From Phycisphaerales bacterium (lineage in GTDB: Bacteria > Planctomycetota > Phycisphaerae > Phycisphaerales > SM1A02), in contig JBPCKF010000106.1 of the NCBI GenBank assembly GCA_051004555.1, positions 3,683 to 67,682 on the forward strand: 64,000 nt of DNA. Direction: 5' to 3'. The first letter of the stretch is position 1. The number at the start of each line of letters is the position of its first letter. A program made the translations under genes and the position numbers. The notes under the pieces were generated by a model that made no database searches, was not told where the DNA came from, and saw only the letters and a program-made list of their open reading frames with translations. This document shows, piece after piece, positions 6,576 through 40,117 of this stretch.

Positions 6576-7385
6576 TCAAGGCATGGGATGATCGGAGCTG
6601 TCACCAGACGTTGATGACGACGGCGGATCTTCCTGGCCGAAGCTGCGCAGCAGACGTTCCCAGCGAACGCGGAAACTCGGCTTGCGATCGAAGGAAAACG
6701 CGACGCCGAACGCCCGCCCGACGATGAGGTCGCGTGGGATCAGGCCGAGCGTCGGATCGCGCGAGTCGCGGCTGTTGTTGCGATTGTCTCCCATCATGAG
6801 AAACTGAGCTTCGGGGATGGTGATGGGGCCGAAGTCTGCGTAGCGCGATCCGCCTCTGCCATTGAGGAACATGACGGGATGCATCACATCGCCTGTGATC
6901 TCGTTCTCGAACTCGATGGGAGCACGACCGAGATCTTCTAAGTCGAGTCGACTGAACTTGCCCGAGTTGACCGCCTCGAACTCCAGCGCCTGGCCATTGA
7001 TAAAGACGACGTTGCCACGCACCTCGAAGGAGTCGCCCGGCACACCCAGCACCCGCTTCACCATTCGCCTTCCATCCTGGGGAGCAAAGAAGACGACAAT
7101 GTCCCCACGGTCAGGATCATCCCAACTGAAGATCCGCCAACGAGTGAAGGGAAACTTGAGGTCGTAGGCGAGCTTGTTGACGAAGATGCGATCGCCCACG
7201 AGAATGGTGGGCTCCATGGAGGCTGATGGAACATCGTTCCAGTCGATGAACGAAGAGCGGAAGGCGAAGACGACGAGGATGGCCAGTCCGATGGGCTTGA
7301 TCCAATCCAGCCAGAGCTTGTGTGCCCAGTTCTTCGGTTCGGGTCGTTCCTTCTTTTTCTTCTCGCTAGGCGTGTTCGTGGACAT
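6576..7385 (-). CDS. lepB: signal peptidase I
   Basis: SASMEPTILVGDRIFVNK (Ser box), VKRVLGVPGD, GDNRNNSRDSR. Confidence 0.9.
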   Translation of the reverse strand: MSTNTPSEKKKKERPEPKNWAHKLWLDWIKPIGLAILVVFAFRSSFIDWNDVPSASMEPTILVGDRIFVNKLAYDLKFPFTRWRIFSWDDPDRGDIVVFFAPQDGRRMVKRVLGVPGDSFEVRGNVVFINGQALEFEAVNSGKFSRLDLEDLGRAPIEFENEITGDVMHPVMFLNGRGGSRYADFGPITIPEAQFLMMGDNRNNSRDSRDPTLGLIPRDLIVGRAFGVAFSFDRKPSFRVRWERLLRSFGQEDPPSSSTSGDSSDHPMP

Positions 7386-16206: not shown

Positions 16207-16406
16207 TTGACTCTCCTTGTTGAAAACGAAGTATCGGAACCGAAACATCGAAAACCGGACATCGGACACATGCGAAACGCTGCGGCAGCCTTTCCATCCA
16301 CCGCTGCCGAGAAGCGTTGCCATGCAGGATTCAGATCGTGTTCAGTTGGCGCAGCGGTTGTGCGAATAGCGATTGCCTGCGCGCCACTCCTCAATCTCGC
16401 GCCTCA

Positions 16407-16524
16407 GGGTGCCACGGCTTCGGCGAAAGCCAAGCCGTGCCCGGACGTGCGATGAAGTGCAAACTGACTTCCGACATTCACTTCCCCTCGCACGGCTTGC
16501 CCTCCGGGCGAAGCCGTGGCACCC
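16407..16524. repeat. pair of hairpins sharing the stem CACGGCTT/AAGCCGTG, bounded by a perfect 16-nt inverted repeat
   Basis: gggtgccacggcttcg at 16407-16422 and its exact reverse complement cgaagccgtggcaccc at 16509-16524. Hairpins at 16413-16439 (GAAA loop) and 16491-16518. A degenerate third copy (gggtgccacgctt...aagccgtgcc) is at 16974-17007. Confidence 0.6.
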
Positions 16525-16565
16525 AAAACCTCACCATATTGCGAGTTATCGAGAAGTTGCGCACC

Positions 16566-16649
16566 TTCACACTCGCGTGTCCGACATTCACACTCCCGTG
16601 TGAGCCGCTCAACCTGCCGTGTGAGCCATCCACCCGGCCGTGTGATGGT
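16566..16649. repeat. four tandem 21-bp imperfect repeats
   Basis: ttcacactcgcgtgtccgaca / ttcacactcccgtgtgagccg / ctcaacctgccgtgtgagcca / tccacccggccgtgtgatggt. Each unit contains a CACAC...GTGTG-type dyad. Confidence 0.7.
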
Positions 16650-17056
16650 GTCGTTGGACCGTTTTAGGGGTGCCATAAGCGCAGCAATAGGCGCAGGTGA
16701 AGGATTTGCTGATGATCATGATCGGTGACGACATGCAACTGACCACTCTCCGCCCGAAGATACCCGAAATGCGCGTCGAGACGATGTGTCCGGGCGCACG
16801 AAGGCGCCATCAGAACATAGATCAGAAGCACTGCAAGAACCGTCCTCACCAACCGCGCCACGCCCAGAGTTGTTCCCACGCCAAGGATGACACAGGGGAG
16901 GATGCGGATTAACCAGCGTTTCATGCCAACATTCTACTTCGACGCCCGGGAGACGCGACCCGTGCGGTCGATAGGGTGCCACGCTTCCACGACAGCCAAG
17001 CCGTGCCGTCATCATTACCGTTTGACACGTTGAGCGACAGCAGGTACGATCCAGTT

Positions 17057-33621: not shown

Positions 33622-33643
33622 CACACACACACACACACACACA
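33622..33643. repeat. (CA)11 dinucleotide microsatellite
   Basis: cacacacacacacacacacaca read directly. It ends 12 nt before ATG 33656 and abuts the AAGGTG ribosome-binding-like sequence. Confidence 0.95.
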
Positions 33644-34195: not shown

Positions 34196-35386
34196 TCACG
34201 CAGCTGGCGGCAGGGCAAGGACACGATCAACAACATGCGCGCGCCCCGCGCCAGCCTCGAGCATGCCGCGACTCACATCCCACTTCCCACACGCACCAGG
34301 GGGCAACATGCGCGCAACCTCATTGAAATCTTCCATATAACGGTCGCGAACATCACGCGCTGCTGCAACATGCTCAGGAAGATACTTCGCACGCTCTTTC
34401 TTTGGCGTCGACACACGCTTGCGCTCTTTCGCCTCTTCAGCACGAATCGCTTCCTCAAGCGCAAAGGTATCAGGATGCGGAACATGCTTGATGCGGCCGC
34501 CAACCACCACACCAACATAGCCACGGGGCGTGCCACCAAGGTGCTTCGATTCAACACGCTCCCTTGCTGCATGCGCCTCTCGAGGACGCACCAGTGCACC
34601 ACCAGCCAATGTCTTCTTCGCAACGTCCTCTTCCGGCTTCTTCCCCGCTGCAAGCGCATCGGCTTCGTGCACTTCCAGCAATGGCACAACCAGAGGCATG
34701 GGATCACGCCAATGCACACCAGGCGGGATCGGCAACACAATCCGCTCTTCCGACACTGCACCCGAATCAGTACGATGCGGATACCAATACGGCGTTGTCG
34801 TATCTTCTGCGTGCACACGACGCTGCCAGAAGATATGAATGCGCTGCTTGCCGCGTGAACCCGTCCGGAACGCAATCGGCACAAAACCCACCGACTCCCA
34901 GAAATAGTTTGCACGAATATCCTGTGCACACCAGCAGCAATACAATTTACATCCATATGCAGAGCGCGAAAACGCTTCGTGCAGCAGACGCGCACCAATC
35001 AGTCGCCGCTGCTCCACAGGCGAGACGTTGAGTTGATAAATAATGCCCAGGTGATCGCGATGCTTATATTCATCGCGGTGAATGATATATCCCAACGGCT
35101 GTCGCGCATCATCTGCGCTCTCAGCCAAAAGCACGTGGCCGCGCGACAGATAGGTCTGGATCGCTCCCCTGCGGAGAAACCCCACCATGTGCGAGTGCAT
35201 CTTCTGCAACATATCAACAAATGCATAATCATCCAGCGTCGCAACCCGAACCGCAACCTCGCCATCGCGGCGAGGCGAGGCAAGCACAGGCGCACACGAA
35301 CCATCCTGCCGCACCGGCAGCGATGCATGACGCATGTTCTCAGGATGAAACAGAGCAGGCAACTGATCGGGCGTCATCATCGACAT
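34196..35386 (-). CDS. GNAT-type N-acetyltransferase domain protein with Lys/Glu/Arg-rich C-terminal region
   Basis: VRVATLDDYAFVDMLQ ... GYIIHRDEY ... IYQLNVSPVEQRRLIGARLLHEAF ... ANYFWESVGFVPIAF resembles a GNAT core. Start set at MSMMTPDQ (GGAG upstream). The ORF stays open to 36196 through the 21-bp array, so the true start is uncertain. Confidence 0.6.
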   Translation of the reverse strand: MSMMTPDQLPALFHPENMRHASLPVRQDGSCAPVLASPRRDGEVAVRVATLDDYAFVDMLQKMHSHMVGFLRRGAIQTYLSRGHVLLAESADDARQPLGYIIHRDEYKHRDHLGIIYQLNVSPVEQRRLIGARLLHEAFSRSAYGCKLYCCWCAQDIRANYFWESVGFVPIAFRTGSRGKQRIHIFWQRRVHAEDTTTPYWYPHRTDSGAVSEERIVLPIPPGVHWRDPMPLVVPLLEVHEADALAAGKKPEEDVAKKTLAGGALVRPREAHAARERVESKHLGGTPRGYVGVVVGGRIKHVPHPDTFALEEAIRAEEAKERKRVSTPKKERAKYLPEHVAAARDVRDRYMEDFNEVARMLPPGACGKWDVSRGMLEAGAGRAHVVDRVLALPPAA

Positions 35387-35783
35387 GACAGAAACTCCGA
35401 ATAAAGGGACAAGAAGAACCAAACCGCACCCCAGTCCAGCCGAGAATGCAGCCACTTTCGCCCCTCCCTCAACTCCGTCGTGATCAGATATCGAACGTTC
35501 CCCATCGTGACTTGAGGCAATATTCACCTGACCGCAGAAAATGCAACCAAAGCCCCTTGCTCTCGCGGCTGCGCCCCCAGCCTGGACGATGAATGAATGA
35601 GCGTGGCGGAGATCAGAGCCGCGACCGTAAAGGAGCGGTTTCCCACCGGATGCGTCCATCGCGCGAAAACGCTTCCTGACGGGGGCGGCTCTGATACCGC
35701 TGGGAAAGGTATGGTCTGGATTGCGCAGCCGCATGAGAGCAGCGCGCACACCCCACGCAGGCGCATGTTCGGGCGTTGCGCTC

Positions 35784-36266
35784 GCGCCACTTCGCATGAT
35801 GACTGCGCCATTTCGCACAAGGGCTGCGCCACTTCGCAAAGCGGAAGCATCATTTCGCAAAGCGGAATCGCCACTTCGCTCAGCGGCTGTGGCGCTTTGC
35901 CCCGCGAGCGTGTTCTTTTGCCCAGTGGATGCCGCCCTTTGTCCAGTCAGCGCGCCCGTGAGCGAAAGGAACGCGCCCCTGAGCACAATGACAGCGCCCT
36001 TAAGCGCAGCGATGGGATCCTCTGGCACAATCAAGGCGCGTAGATACGGAGCGGAACTGTTCAGATCGACAGCAGAGGGTCTGCTGGGCAAAAGGGCGGG
36101 CCCGCAGGACAACAGGATTGACGCACTGGGCAAAAGGACACACCCGCCGGGCAAAAGGATGCGGGCATTGCGCAAAGGGGCGCGAGCGCTGGACAAGGTC
36201 GCGCGAGCATTGTTTCAAGTGGCGCAAACGCTGGACACCCGCGTGACATTCTGAGCGACGCGACAG
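35784..36266. repeat. about 23 perfectly phased, degenerate 21-bp tandem units
   Basis: gcgccacttcgcatgatgact / gcgccatttcgcacaagggct / gcgccacttcgcaaagcggaa / gcatcatttcgcaaagcggaa / tcgccacttcgctcagcggct / ... / ctgggcaaaaggacacacccg / ccgggcaaaaggatgcgggca / ttgcgcaaaggggcgcgagcg / ctggacaaggtcgcgcgagca. The 21-nt register is kept throughout. Confidence 0.8.
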
Positions 36267-36304
36267 GCTGATCTGGCCTTTCGCATCGTTCATTCAGTCT
36301 CATA

Positions 36305-37228
36305 TCAACGGCTGTCGAGCACAATCTCCGCCATTTGCTGCAGTTGCCCGACGAGTTCCTTCGTCGGCACATCGACGTGAAAATCAGGCAGGGCGTCTGC
36401 ATCGCCCTGAAAGAGCAGCGGCACGGGGACACCTTCAATCGAAACCTTGTAAACACCGATCTTTTGGCGCGCGTGATCTTCAACCACAAAGAGTACATCA
36501 TCTTCCAGCAGCGACTTCCAGCCTTCGATCCGGCCGATGCGACGATGTCGATCTTCAGGGACTGAATAGACATCGCCGTTGTCGTTGTCGATCAGGTAGA
36601 GATGATCAGCAGCACGCATGACACGGAACGGACCTTCGAGTGTTGTCTCGACGCGGGCCTTTTCGATCCATGCATCATCTTCGGGGCGATTGTGTGTCCA
36701 GTGATAGAGGCTGCCGTCGTTGACAGCGAAGACTGAGAGGTCATCCCCTTCGAGGAAAATGCAGTCGATGTAGATTTCCCAGTCAAGGATGTTGGCACGG
36801 CCATAGGTATCAATCATGTCTTCGACGGGTTGCAATTGACGGTGCGAGTTCGCCGACCATTCAAAAATCCTTTGCTGTGCGTCTCGGTCAAGCGGACCGC
36901 GTTGTGCAGATCGCGAGAATCGCAGGCTGTCATCGATTGGGAAGCGACGCGTCGCTGATCCCCACTGCCAACCGTTCATTGGACGGCGCATCCCTGCGTA
37001 GTAGAACTCGCTGTTGACGATGCCCCAAATGCACGGGCCAGTGCGGTCGTAAAAATGACCGCCTTTGGACTTCAGCGGTGCGGAATCAACGAACGCCCAC
37101 ATTGCTGCGGTCATTCGTTCCTGGTTGATGACGAGCGTGAGCAGTTCGCCAGCTTCGGTGATTGCTGCTTCGGTGATTTGCGGTGGCGCGGACAACAATG
37201 AGGCGACGGTGAGCAGTTCAAAGATCAT
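36305..37228 (-). CDS. hypothetical protein with hydrophobic N-terminus
   Basis: 307-aa ORF with protein-like composition. N-terminal MIFELLTVASLLSAPPQI. No family recognised. Confidence 0.55.
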   Translation of the reverse strand: MIFELLTVASLLSAPPQITEAAITEAGELLTLVINQERMTAAMWAFVDSAPLKSKGGHFYDRTGPCIWGIVNSEFYYAGMRRPMNGWQWGSATRRFPIDDSLRFSRSAQRGPLDRDAQQRIFEWSANSHRQLQPVEDMIDTYGRANILDWEIYIDCIFLEGDDLSVFAVNDGSLYHWTHNRPEDDAWIEKARVETTLEGPFRVMRAADHLYLIDNDNGDVYSVPEDRHRRIGRIEGWKSLLEDDVLFVVEDHARQKIGVYKVSIEGVPVPLLFQGDADALPDFHVDVPTKELVGQLQQMAEIVLDSR

Positions 37229-38705: not shown

Positions 38706-39051
38706 CGTGGAGCACCCCATAGAAGCCTGTCAACGATCTGTCCCTGACCACAATAACGATTTACGCGCATACTGTCAAGTGCATTCTATGATTTGGCTTT
38801 TGGCGTCCTCACGCTCACGGGAGAACTCTTGAAAGAGGTTGAGCGCCTTGGAGCGAGGCCCCCCCGCGCTCGACTGCCCCTCGCACCTGAACCGAAAATC
38901 ACGCCCTTTTTCAGATTTCTCATTTCAGTGGCTGCACAGTCGGTCCGAATGATGCAGATAACAAAGTTCACGGTTGTTCGTGGGCTGCACCCGATGGGCA
39001 TCTCTCTTCATCCGACGAGATGCTTTCCCTTCCGTTACAGGAGATACAGTC

Positions 39052-39711
39052 ATGGATTATATTCCAGGCAAGGATGCTGATGCGCTCATCTGGATGCGCG
39101 CGTTTGCGAATGTCATTTCTGCCAGCCCATCGACCTATCAGCTCGTTCCTCCTGATGGGGTCATGCTGAGCACTGCTGTTGATGAATTTGAGACAGCCCT
39201 GCAGACCGCGAATACGCAGAGCACTCGTACGCCGGGTGCGATTCAGACCAAGGATACCAAGCGCAATGCTGCTGAGACTCTGTGTCGTCAGTATGCTGTT
39301 CAGATCAAGTACAACAATGCGATCAGCGACACCGCCAAGATTGACCTGGGCGTGCGTCCTGTGAATGAATCGCGCGAGCCGGTGTACTGTCCGCAGAGTT
39401 CGCCACTGTTGAGCATTACCGCTGCGACGCCTGGTGCACAAACGCTGCGGTATGCAGATTCTCTGAATCCGACGACTGCCGGCAAGCCGTTCGGAGCAGC
39501 AGCGCTGCAACTGTTCATGTACGTTGGCGATGAAGCGACCACGAACGAAGATCAGGCCCAGTTTGTCGGCCTCTTTACACGCAATCCCGTGGCAGTCACG
39601 TTTGACCCGGCTGATGACGGCAAAGTCGCGACCTTCTTTGCACGCTGGTCGGGCGGTCGTGGCGACACCGGCAACTGGTCGCTCCCAACCTCTATGCGCA
39701 TCGCGGCCTGA
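39052..39711 (+). CDS. hypothetical protein (helical N-terminal half, beta-sandwich-like C-terminal half)
   Basis: AGGAG lies 9 nt before ATG 39052. C-terminal ...GKVATFFARWSGGRGDTGNWSLPTSMRI. No family named with confidence. Confidence 0.55.
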   Translation: MDYIPGKDADALIWMRAFANVISASPSTYQLVPPDGVMLSTAVDEFETALQTANTQSTRTPGAIQTKDTKRNAAETLCRQYAVQIKYNNAISDTAKIDLGVRPVNESREPVYCPQSSPLLSITAATPGAQTLRYADSLNPTTAGKPFGAAALQLFMYVGDEATTNEDQAQFVGLFTRNPVAVTFDPADDGKVATFFARWSGGRGDTGNWSLPTSMRIAA

Positions 39712-39760
39712 GCAGGCACCGCATTCTGTTTTTACACTCATTCAGTAAAGGTTTTTTCCA

Positions 39761-40117
39761 ATGTCTTCAGCAAGTCCACTGACGCGCACTCAGCGCAACC
39801 GTCGTCCTCGCCGCGAGAATCAACCCATCAATCAGCCCGATCTTGCAACACCCGTGTTCATCACAAGTGTTGCGCCCGCGGGCACCAATGTGACACTGAC
39901 ATTCGATCAGTCAGTTTCGCTCAATGGCACTCCTGCGTTCACCACCGATGTTGCAGGCGCGACTGTGGTGTCTGCGAGCCAGAGTTCGCCGAATGTGGTG
40001 GTGCTGACGTTCAGCGCGGATGTGTCGCTTGCTTCGCAAGTGAACATTCCGCCCCGTGATGAAGCGATTCGTGGCAGCCGTGGCGGGTATGTCACAGCGA
40101 CAGTTGTGCTGGTGTGA
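39761..40117 (+). CDS. hypothetical small protein with basic N-terminus and Ig/beta-sandwich-like body
   Basis: MSSASPLTRTQRNRRPRRENQ followed by alternating beta-like TNVTLTFDQSVSLNG...VVVLTFSADVSL. Confidence 0.45.
   Translation: MSSASPLTRTQRNRRPRRENQPINQPDLATPVFITSVAPAGTNVTLTFDQSVSLNGTPAFTTDVAGATVVSASQSSPNVVVLTFSADVSLASQVNIPPRDEAIRGSRGGYVTATVVLV

Follow-up and report, generated by a model that had tools for sequence, protein, structure and literature searches.

Iterons of the kind found in the plasmids RK2, R6K, P1 and pPS10 are direct sites of 17-22 bp that lie about 21-22 bp apart beside the gene of the protein that binds them, and theta plasmids carry iterons of 22 bp. The sopC site of F is a tandem array of 12 units of 43 bp, each with a palindromic site and a non-conserved spacer, and parC of pSK41 is built of 20-bp repeats. 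In R1 parC, 11-bp iterons form two sets around a central region that is not bound by ParR (PMC2241845). TubR-tubC arrays are a further type of centromere built from repeats (PMC6009700). Here we analyze an array of 21-bp units in a stretch of 64,000 nucleotides (the window) from contig JBPCKF010000106.1 of a Phycisphaerales metagenome-assembled genome (MAG). On balance, we favor the interpretation that this array is a non-coding, cis-acting element made of phased protein-binding sites that would serve a conserved cassette of genes. By analogy, its closest functional counterparts would be plasmid centromeres and iterons.

Anatomy of the array

The array extends from 35784 to 36245, where it had been placed by an earlier examination of the letters and their open reading frames (ORFs), referred to here as the sequence-only reading. 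When printed in register, the sequence forms 22 head-to-tail units of 21 bp, or 462 bp, without a slip, and Tandem Repeats Finder reports four overlapping 21-bp rows from 35784 to 36160. One or two degenerate units flank the 22 clear ones at the ends; the earlier count was of about 23 units. The array lies in a 0.9-kb gap between the start of a GNAT gene at 35386 and the stop of the next gene at 36305, as had been described. Identity at lag 21 within the array is 0.56, compared with a maximum of 0.35 at any lag of 5-59 in 500 shuffles, and a sliding scan of 210 bp gives a peak of 0.64 in the array against a window-wide background of 0.275 +/- 0.043. Up to a lag of 315 bp the autocorrelation mostly peaks on exact multiples of 21, although at lags 231 and 273 the -1 shoulder is slightly higher. 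There is therefore no net insertion or deletion (indel) across the 462 bp, and the earlier claim of an unslipping register holds over this entire length. Two arms and a center can be distinguished:

35784-36014, no strand assigned: left arm, 11 units of 21 bp, from the register print, Tandem Repeats Finder, direct-repeat families D1, D3 and D5 and the orientation annotation; units 1-5 read GCGCCAyTTCGCAAAGCGGAA, units 6-8 contain CTTTTGCCCAG and units 9-11 begin GCGCCCnTGAGC
36015-36077, no strand assigned: center, three degenerate units (63 bp) still in register, from the register print and phase coherence
36078-36245, no strand assigned: right arm, 8 units with CTGGGCAAAAGG, from inverted pairs I2 and I3, a pattern search, the register print and column statistics

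The informative columns of the unit are 1, 5, 8, 11, 12, 15, 18 and 19. Among the columns that the sequence-only reading had called conserved, 1, 5, 8, 11 and 12 are borne out, 2 and 3 are not among the informative ones, and 15, 18 and 19 had been missed; also missed was the palindromic nature of the skeleton CnnTnnG|CnnAnnG that is made up by columns 5, 8, 11 | 12, 15, 18 (C5..T8..G11|C12..A15..G18). Units occur in two orientations about a fixed axis, CTTTTG|CCCAG in the left arm and CTGGG|CAAAAG in the right, and for this reason the look of the unit changes while the register survives. The CTGGGCAAAAGG of the right arm is the reverse complement of CCTTTTGCCCAG in the left arm, the two sharing a dyad axis between columns 11 and 12. 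The center carries GCGGAAC-TGTTCAGA, a motif that is also central in the array of the closest relative, locus L078 (related loci are given L numbers). A small dyad pointed out earlier, ttcgc-aaa-gcgga, is real; window units 3-4 (CTTCGC-AAA-GCGGAAG) resemble the TTCGC-N3-GCGAA type of core seen in other arrays. With its lag-21 identity of 0.56 and a mean column information of 0.62 bits, the window array is among the most degenerate of its kind; the arrays of several relatives have lag-21 identities of 0.85-0.98.

A search of the 64 kb for the array 21-mer with up to 3 mismatches found no copy outside the array, which is thus not a dispersed repeat of the repetitive extragenic palindromic (REP) or miniature inverted-repeat transposable element (MITE) type. 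An array of clustered regularly interspaced short palindromic repeats (CRISPR) was also considered and rejected, as the units abut head to tail without spacers. No sigma-70-type promoter was found in the array region, a negative that is uninformative for planctomycetes. Between the GNAT start and the array there is an inverted repeat (35612-35695) with 31-nt arms, 81% complementary, and a 22-nt loop; it holds the 12-mer GAGCCGCGACCG, which occurs once in the window.

Arrays upstream of P221 genes

The GNAT family has at least 756 homologs, and 73 related loci were compared with one another. In this all-against-all comparison only three gene families recur, namely P221/P267 (about 220-300 amino acids, aa), proteins of about 110-150 aa, and GNAT, and the flanks of the cassette are unrelated on either side. 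The order of the cassette is array, P221, optional P116 and P114 (about 110 aa each) and GNAT with a basic tail. P221 is usually followed by small immunoglobulin-like (Ig-like) genes and the GNAT-like acetyltransferase, which normally closes the cassette; some loci have a cassette of P221 and GNAT alone. Several copies per genome are found in Phycisphaerae and Tepidisphaerales, and one contig of 5.5 Mb, JASGKC010000001.1, holds four of the fetched loci (L012, L018, L055 and L057).

In a sample derived from GNAT, 30 of the 42 loci with a P221 homolog have a 21-bp array that ends 0-350 bp upstream of P221. An independent sample, obtained from metagenomes with a P221 alignment, has an array upstream of P221 in 32 of 51 loci; a metagenome search with the single P221 sequence had found no close relatives, but the alignment query did find loci. 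When the samples were pooled and de-duplicated, a non-coding 21-bp array was present within 1.5 kb upstream of P221 in 56 of 85 loci, and the density of arrays upstream of P221 was 0.55 per kb versus 0.037 per kb elsewhere in the same loci, a 15-fold difference. As judged from this comparison of sequences, the arrays mark the upstream edge of a conserved, uncharacterized cassette. A conserved small gene upstream of the arrays was looked for among the related loci, and none was found.

All strong signals have a period of 21 bp, with no competing period; two arrays upstream of P221 homologs have a period of 20 bp (L008, 2900-3160, and L055, 3860-4100). In L081, L092 and L057, among others, the array is almost perfect. 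Unit sequences are unrelated between most loci, even between copies on JASGKC010000001.1. Array similarity co-varies with the divergence of the cassette proteins (Mantel rho 0.12-0.20, p <= 0.006), and the arrays are therefore inherited with the cassette. A dyad core of 14-15 bp with at least 6 of 7 symmetric pairs is present in 32 of 70 arrays (46%), as against 7% of column-shuffled controls; in these arrays the remaining 6-7 bp form a spacer that is seemingly less conserved in the arrays inspected. Recurrent dyad types are TTCGCG..CGCGAA and TTCC..GGAA, and examples of cores are CATTTCGCGAAATG (L090), CATTGAGCTCAATG (L122), GGAACCATGGTTCC (L133), GTTCCAGATCTGGAAC (L053), TTCCGCGGAA (L074) and GTTCGCGGCGCGAAC (L140). 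The half-sites drift independently, with 48 compensatory changes observed and 50.8 expected from column shuffles of the 32 good-dyad arrays (z = -0.5). Dyad cores that recur at two-turn intervals and whose half-sites drift in this way look like sites for a dimeric DNA-binding protein on a single face of the helix. The sequence-only reading had offered two explanations for the window array. The first, a non-coding array of binding sites, is supported by the comparison, that is, by the frequency of arrays among the loci, the constant period, the excess of dyad cores and the independent evolution of half-sites; the second, a heptad-repeat protein, is not.

The genes of the cassette in the window are the following:

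39052-39711, plus strand: P221 (ACR2GY_13300, 219 aa), from tblastn, homologs, a structure model and fold searches
39761-40117, plus strand: P116 (118 aa), second cassette gene, from tblastn (49-53% identity to L074, L075 and L076)
34196-35386, minus strand: GNAT-like acetyltransferase (ACR2GY_13285, 396 aa), from a weak Pfam match, a model and a PDB fold search

The model of P221 (predicted local distance difference test score, pLDDT, 91) has an N-terminal three-helix bundle and a C-terminal FN3 domain. The protein is acidic, with an isoelectric point (pI) of 4.9; for the helical domain the median in the family is 4.8. Fold searches with P221 found FN3 domains alone in the PDB and weak matches to uncharacterized or tail-type phage proteins in BFVD. 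P116 looks, by eye, like an arginine-rich N-terminal arm followed by beta-rich, Ig-like sequence; its first 30 residues have a pI of 12, and it had no family match in the libraries scanned. In GNAT the acetyltransferase fold is true at residues 44-190 and is followed by a low-confidence basic tail (family median tail pI 10.0), and its fold search matched generic acetyltransferases. A PDB sequence search gave nothing for GNAT or P221. When all the cassette and cargo proteins were scanned against Pfam, PHROGs, PADLOC and NCBIfam, only weak GNAT or acetyltransferase matches and one marginal PADLOC match for a GNAT homolog were obtained. In the few relatives that were inspected, restriction-modification, ParB_N-methyltransferase and TIR genes are among the neighbors. 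Several related cassettes have tandem runs of 7-9 bp followed by their reverse complements between the cassette genes (L079, about 6850-6970; L075, 5854-5976; L057, 5852-5919; L074, 4748-4773), for example (CACAGAG)n...(CTCTGTG)n and (CGCAGAGG)n...(CCTCTGCG)n. Such pairs would give long hairpins immediately before the start codon of P221 or GNAT; the window cassette showed none.

A mechanism can be proposed for the favored interpretation of the array as a cis-acting set of protein-binding sites. Each unit combines the 14-bp quasi-palindromic skeleton with a 7-bp spacer, and because 21 bp is two helical turns, all sites would lie on one side of the helix. A dimeric DNA-binding protein specific to the cassette could bind each dyad and assemble cooperatively into a polymer on a single face of the DNA. 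Transcription of the cassette would then be controlled by this nucleoprotein complex, or the complex would mark the cassette as one unit to be maintained, replicated or packaged. The binder might be the basic C-terminal domain of GNAT or the arginine-rich arm of P116.

Several observations weigh against this interpretation. The gene most tightly linked to the arrays, P221, encodes the acidic protein of helical bundle plus FN3-like domain described above, and Pfam, PHROGs, PADLOC and NCBIfam show no DNA-binding domain in any cassette protein. At the threshold used, one third of the loci have no array. A clear dyad is missing from about half of the arrays, and half-sites are not spaced alike in all of them; a single family of binders with a fixed geometry is therefore not evident. 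In the co-variation with array sequence, no domain of the cassette proteins stands out, all of them correlating weakly. Finally, the window copy is among the most degenerate, stands in a broken cassette and may no longer work.

Type II centromeres such as parC of pSK41 and R1 are similar to these arrays in that their repeats lie directly upstream of an operon, have a period of one or two helical turns and are bound cooperatively into a higher-order complex. The arrays likewise lie upstream of the cassette genes, at the distances from P221 given above. Among the families and folds matched by the cassette proteins there is neither a ParM or TubZ nucleoside triphosphatase nor a ParR or TubR adaptor. 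The window array also differs from these centromeres in being chromosomal, in a cassette with several copies per genome, in having 22 units rather than 4-10, and in the dyad symmetry of its units and the inverted rather than direct arrangement of its two arms. The spacing of iterons is matched closely (22 units at 21 bp in the window, 20-21 bp in relatives), and distant relatives of the cassette are circles with a Rep_1 gene and tandem repeats upstream of rep. However, no Rep gene adjoins the array in the window cassette or in the chromosomal loci, Rep_1 being confined to those distant circles, and the arrays hold 10-25 units, well over the usual 3-9 of iterons. With sites of the sopC, ParB or KorB type the arrays share a tandem arrangement of palindromic sites and spacers, but the period is 21 bp instead of 43 bp, the cassette has no ParA or ParB genes, and each locus tends to have cores of its own sequence; the L055 unit TTAGCCGCTAA seems similar to TTTAGCSGCTAAA, the KorB operator consensus. 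The two repeat sets and central region of R1 parC resemble the two arms and center of the window array (PMC2241845). The array belongs to none of the centromere, iteron and sopC classes, because the partner genes (ParM/ParR, TubZ/TubR, ParA/ParB, Rep) are absent from the cassette, which moreover is chromosomal, with several copies in each genome.

A literature search for an earlier description of this array, the cassette or their pairing found none. The array appears to consist of phased protein-binding repeats of a known type that are attached to an uncharacterized and apparently undescribed cassette. The cassette is compact, with a phased array and two to four genes, and has no confident match in any curated library. 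As the number of GNAT homologs and of copies per Phycisphaerae genome indicates, it is widespread, in poorly studied bacteria for which there are few genetic tools. The constant two-turn period and the freely diverging units provide a natural experiment on protein-DNA assemblies that would constrain spacing and not sequence.

The rearranged copy in the window

In the window, P221 and P116 are on the plus strand and GNAT is inverted, on the minus strand, 400 bp from the array; P114 was not detected in the window by tblastn. The three genes that are present are intact and open. The array is separated from P221 by 2.8 kb with unrelated genes, two lineage-specific ones that were found as ORFs without family matches:

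36305-37228, minus strand: lineage-specific gene, 307 aa
37256-38206, minus strand: lineage-specific gene, 316 aa

Among 5.8 billion sequences, the 307-aa protein has two homologs only, and these are its paralogs ACR2GY_05645 and ACR2GY_05400 in the same MAG. Two other ORFs in this part of the window are probably artefacts. One, of 257 aa (38968-39741, minus strand), is antisense to the real P221 gene; the other, of 666 aa (34196-36196, minus strand), is the 396-aa GNAT gene extended through the stop-free array.

The closest relative of the window cassette is L078, whose P221 is 67% identical. Its array is also two-armed and shares with the window array GCGCTTTGCC/GGGCAA and the central GCGGAAC..CTGTTC. 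When the two arrays were aligned base by base, unit types were found to be shared but positions were not orthologous. In L078 the array and P221 have between them the gene for an MmeI enzyme, on the opposite strand, and GNAT is in the usual position. L075 has about 3 kb of other genes between array and P221, and in L012 and L043 the array precedes P221 by 2.4-3.2 kb, a stretch that contains unannotated ORFs. Given the insertions in these four loci and in the window, the interval between array and P221 tolerates cargo.

A single inversion of the block formed by array, cargo, P221 and P116, together with the loss of P114, would turn the canonical order into that of the window. Such an inversion would explain the divergent GNAT beside the array as well as the missing P114, and the positions of P221, P116 and GNAT in the window match those that it predicts. 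This copy is old and rearranged, with units at about 55% identity that are nevertheless in phase.

These features also bring to mind a different explanation, namely that the array family is, or once was, functional and that the window copy is a decaying remnant left after the cargo insertion and the inversion. The absence of P114, the inverted GNAT and the unrelated genes between array and P221 agree with this, as do the window units, which are among the least alike. We nevertheless consider it unlikely. There is no net indel in 462 bp in spite of roughly 45% divergence between units, which is unexpected under neutral decay, and P221, P116 and GNAT in the window are all open and intact. Moreover, L078 keeps the two-arm architecture, tolerates an inserted gene and retains GNAT in its usual position.

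Rolling-circle relatives, other readings and minor repeats

Distant relatives of P221 (35-38% identity) are encoded on Rep_1 contigs of about 4.3-4.7 kb (L157, L158, L146 and L142; also L136 and L156), for which circularity is based on exact terminal redundancy or circular permutation. L157 (1-4374) has an exact terminal redundancy of 99 nt, giving a circle of 4,275 bp, and L158 is a circular permutation of it. L146 (1-4773) starts and ends in one 42-bp tandem array, and in L142 the rep gene is split over the contig ends. GNAT is missing from the circles, whose genes are those for a Rep_1 rolling-circle initiator (PF01446, E = 9e-15), P221, a P116-like protein and a zinc-ribbon ORF. Tandem repeats precede rep by about 0.4 kb: in L146 and L142 the units are 42 bp (2 x 21), in at least 6 and about 2 copies, respectively, while L156 has a 42/21 signal and L157 a pair of 35-37 bp. 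These contigs are candidates for undescribed plasmids or single-stranded DNA viruses of Planctomycetota, and neither PLSDB nor INPHARED holds a match to them.

The circles lend some weight to the notion that the arrays are iterons of the origin type, that is, sites for replication or mobilization of a rolling-circle element with Rep acting in trans, the chromosomal cassettes being integrated or satellite-like. Two pairs of cassettes are 99.8-99.9% identical (L101, 1694-1913, versus L108, 6495-6712; L099, 2067-2464, versus L124, 58-455), and their similarity ends on the left, at or within the left edge of the array. The near-identical cassettes of L101 and L108 lose all similarity leftwards, starting from inside the array, which suggests that the array is the boundary of a unit that moves or recombines. 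However, the observation of different flanks concerns this one pair, since for L099/L124 one contig (L124) has low coverage and is possibly chimeric. A Rep gene is found in no chromosomal locus and only on the small circular contigs, the chromosomal arrays adjoin P221 and not rep, and no nick motif of the pC194 type is present near the arrays. Neither a transposon-like second end nor a copy of the unit was found elsewhere in the related loci, and cassette copies within one genome are old paralogs (35-55% identity) rather than recent insertions. The array region had no match in PLSDB, and P221 had none in PLSDB or INPHARED; in IMG/VR a scan with the P221 alignment found no relative, and GNAT had one weak match. 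An origin function for the present arrays seems rather improbable. GNAT itself was considered as a disguised Rep and rejected, a profile comparison with Rep_1 giving a probability of 0.2%.

Small rolling-circle replicons may still be the ancestors of the chromosomal cassettes, the array being a retained cis site. Tentatively, the array and P221 could be the signature of undescribed small elements of Planctomycetota that exist as free 4-5-kb rolling-circle replicons and as chromosomal derivatives in which a GNAT fusion replaces Rep. The two-turn palindrome array would then be a cis site specific to the element (for packaging, maintenance or as a switch), read by a protein without a recognizable DNA-binding domain, and the interval between array and P221 would be a landing site for cargo such as restriction enzymes. 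If the rolling-circle link is true, the circles would be, as far as our limited searches show, the first candidate backbone of a small plasmid or single-stranded DNA virus in Planctomycetota, and the array a candidate cis element for building vectors.

The array could also act as RNA, either as a string of small hairpins that sequesters a protein or as a long fold-back of its two arms. Many units are palindromic, and the region 35760-36270 folds better than its shuffles (z = -2.8 for the plus strand and -4.1 for the minus strand) with the arms pairing. Such z-scores arise from any DNA palindrome, however, and several cores are perfect palindromes without a loop (GTTCCAGATCTGGAAC, TGCCCGCGCGGGCA), which fits sites in duplex DNA. 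The compensatory changes counted above (48 against 50.8 expected) give no sign of pairing, paired cells are not in excess over column shuffles (z = 0.14), and G:T versus A:C mismatches, at 168:165 and 173:139, have no clear strand bias. There was no Rfam match above threshold, and in most relatives the array has a single orientation, so that arm-to-arm folding is impossible. As far as sequence can tell, an RNA hairpin array is not supported, and we regard it as very improbable.

The heptad-repeat protein proposed as the second explanation in the sequence-only reading, for example the product of the plus-strand ORF 35721-36254 (177 aa), with a 7-residue repeat that might be palindromic as in PARCEL elements, would account for a unit of 21 nt, or 7 codons. 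ORFs are indeed called in five of the six frames over parts of the array, as had been noted, the skeleton positions are 3 nt apart within each half-unit, and L057 has a frame that reads (HPDEKVA)n, in which some of the differences between units look synonymous. However, a stop-free sense frame exists in only 14 of 30 arrays and a stop-free antisense frame in 18 of 30; the arrays of L014, L034, L053 and L061 have stops in all six frames, and the 20-bp periods of L008 and L055 cannot be phased with codons. Arrays upstream of P221 show no 3-nt periodicity of conservation (p = 0.92 in the window), while 21-bp-periodic stretches inside genes of the same loci, used as positive controls for coding, gave p = 0.002; lag-3 identity is 0.23 in the window versus 0.36 or more in the coding controls. 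At the dyad axis of the window array the 3-nt spacing of the skeleton shifts to another phase, as expected of a palindrome and not of a reading frame. The 177-aa product has no family match, and locus tags run consecutively from GNAT to P221, hence no gene is annotated over the array. PARCELs are also dyad-symmetric tandem repeat DNA that is open in several frames on both strands, but their units are of 25 residues (75 nt) inside real, expressed ORFs (PMC2996958); the arrays studied here are intergenic, with a period of 21 or 20 bp, often carry stops and show no codon periodicity. On these grounds of sequence the coding reading is largely refuted, and we reject it. Such arrays give rise to false ORFs in as many as five frames and also seem to disrupt the assembly of metagenomes; recognizing them improves annotation.

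A second, short 21-bp repeat is present in the window at 16570-16653, with about 4 units that begin CACTCnCGTGTGAGCC. It is upstream of feoA/feoB, as read by eye, with no P221 or GNAT gene near, and has copies of a hairpin motif rich in GC, GGGTGCCACGGCTT...AAGCCGTGCC, on either side within 16395-17010. The window also contains a perfect (CA)11 dinucleotide repeat at 33622-33643.

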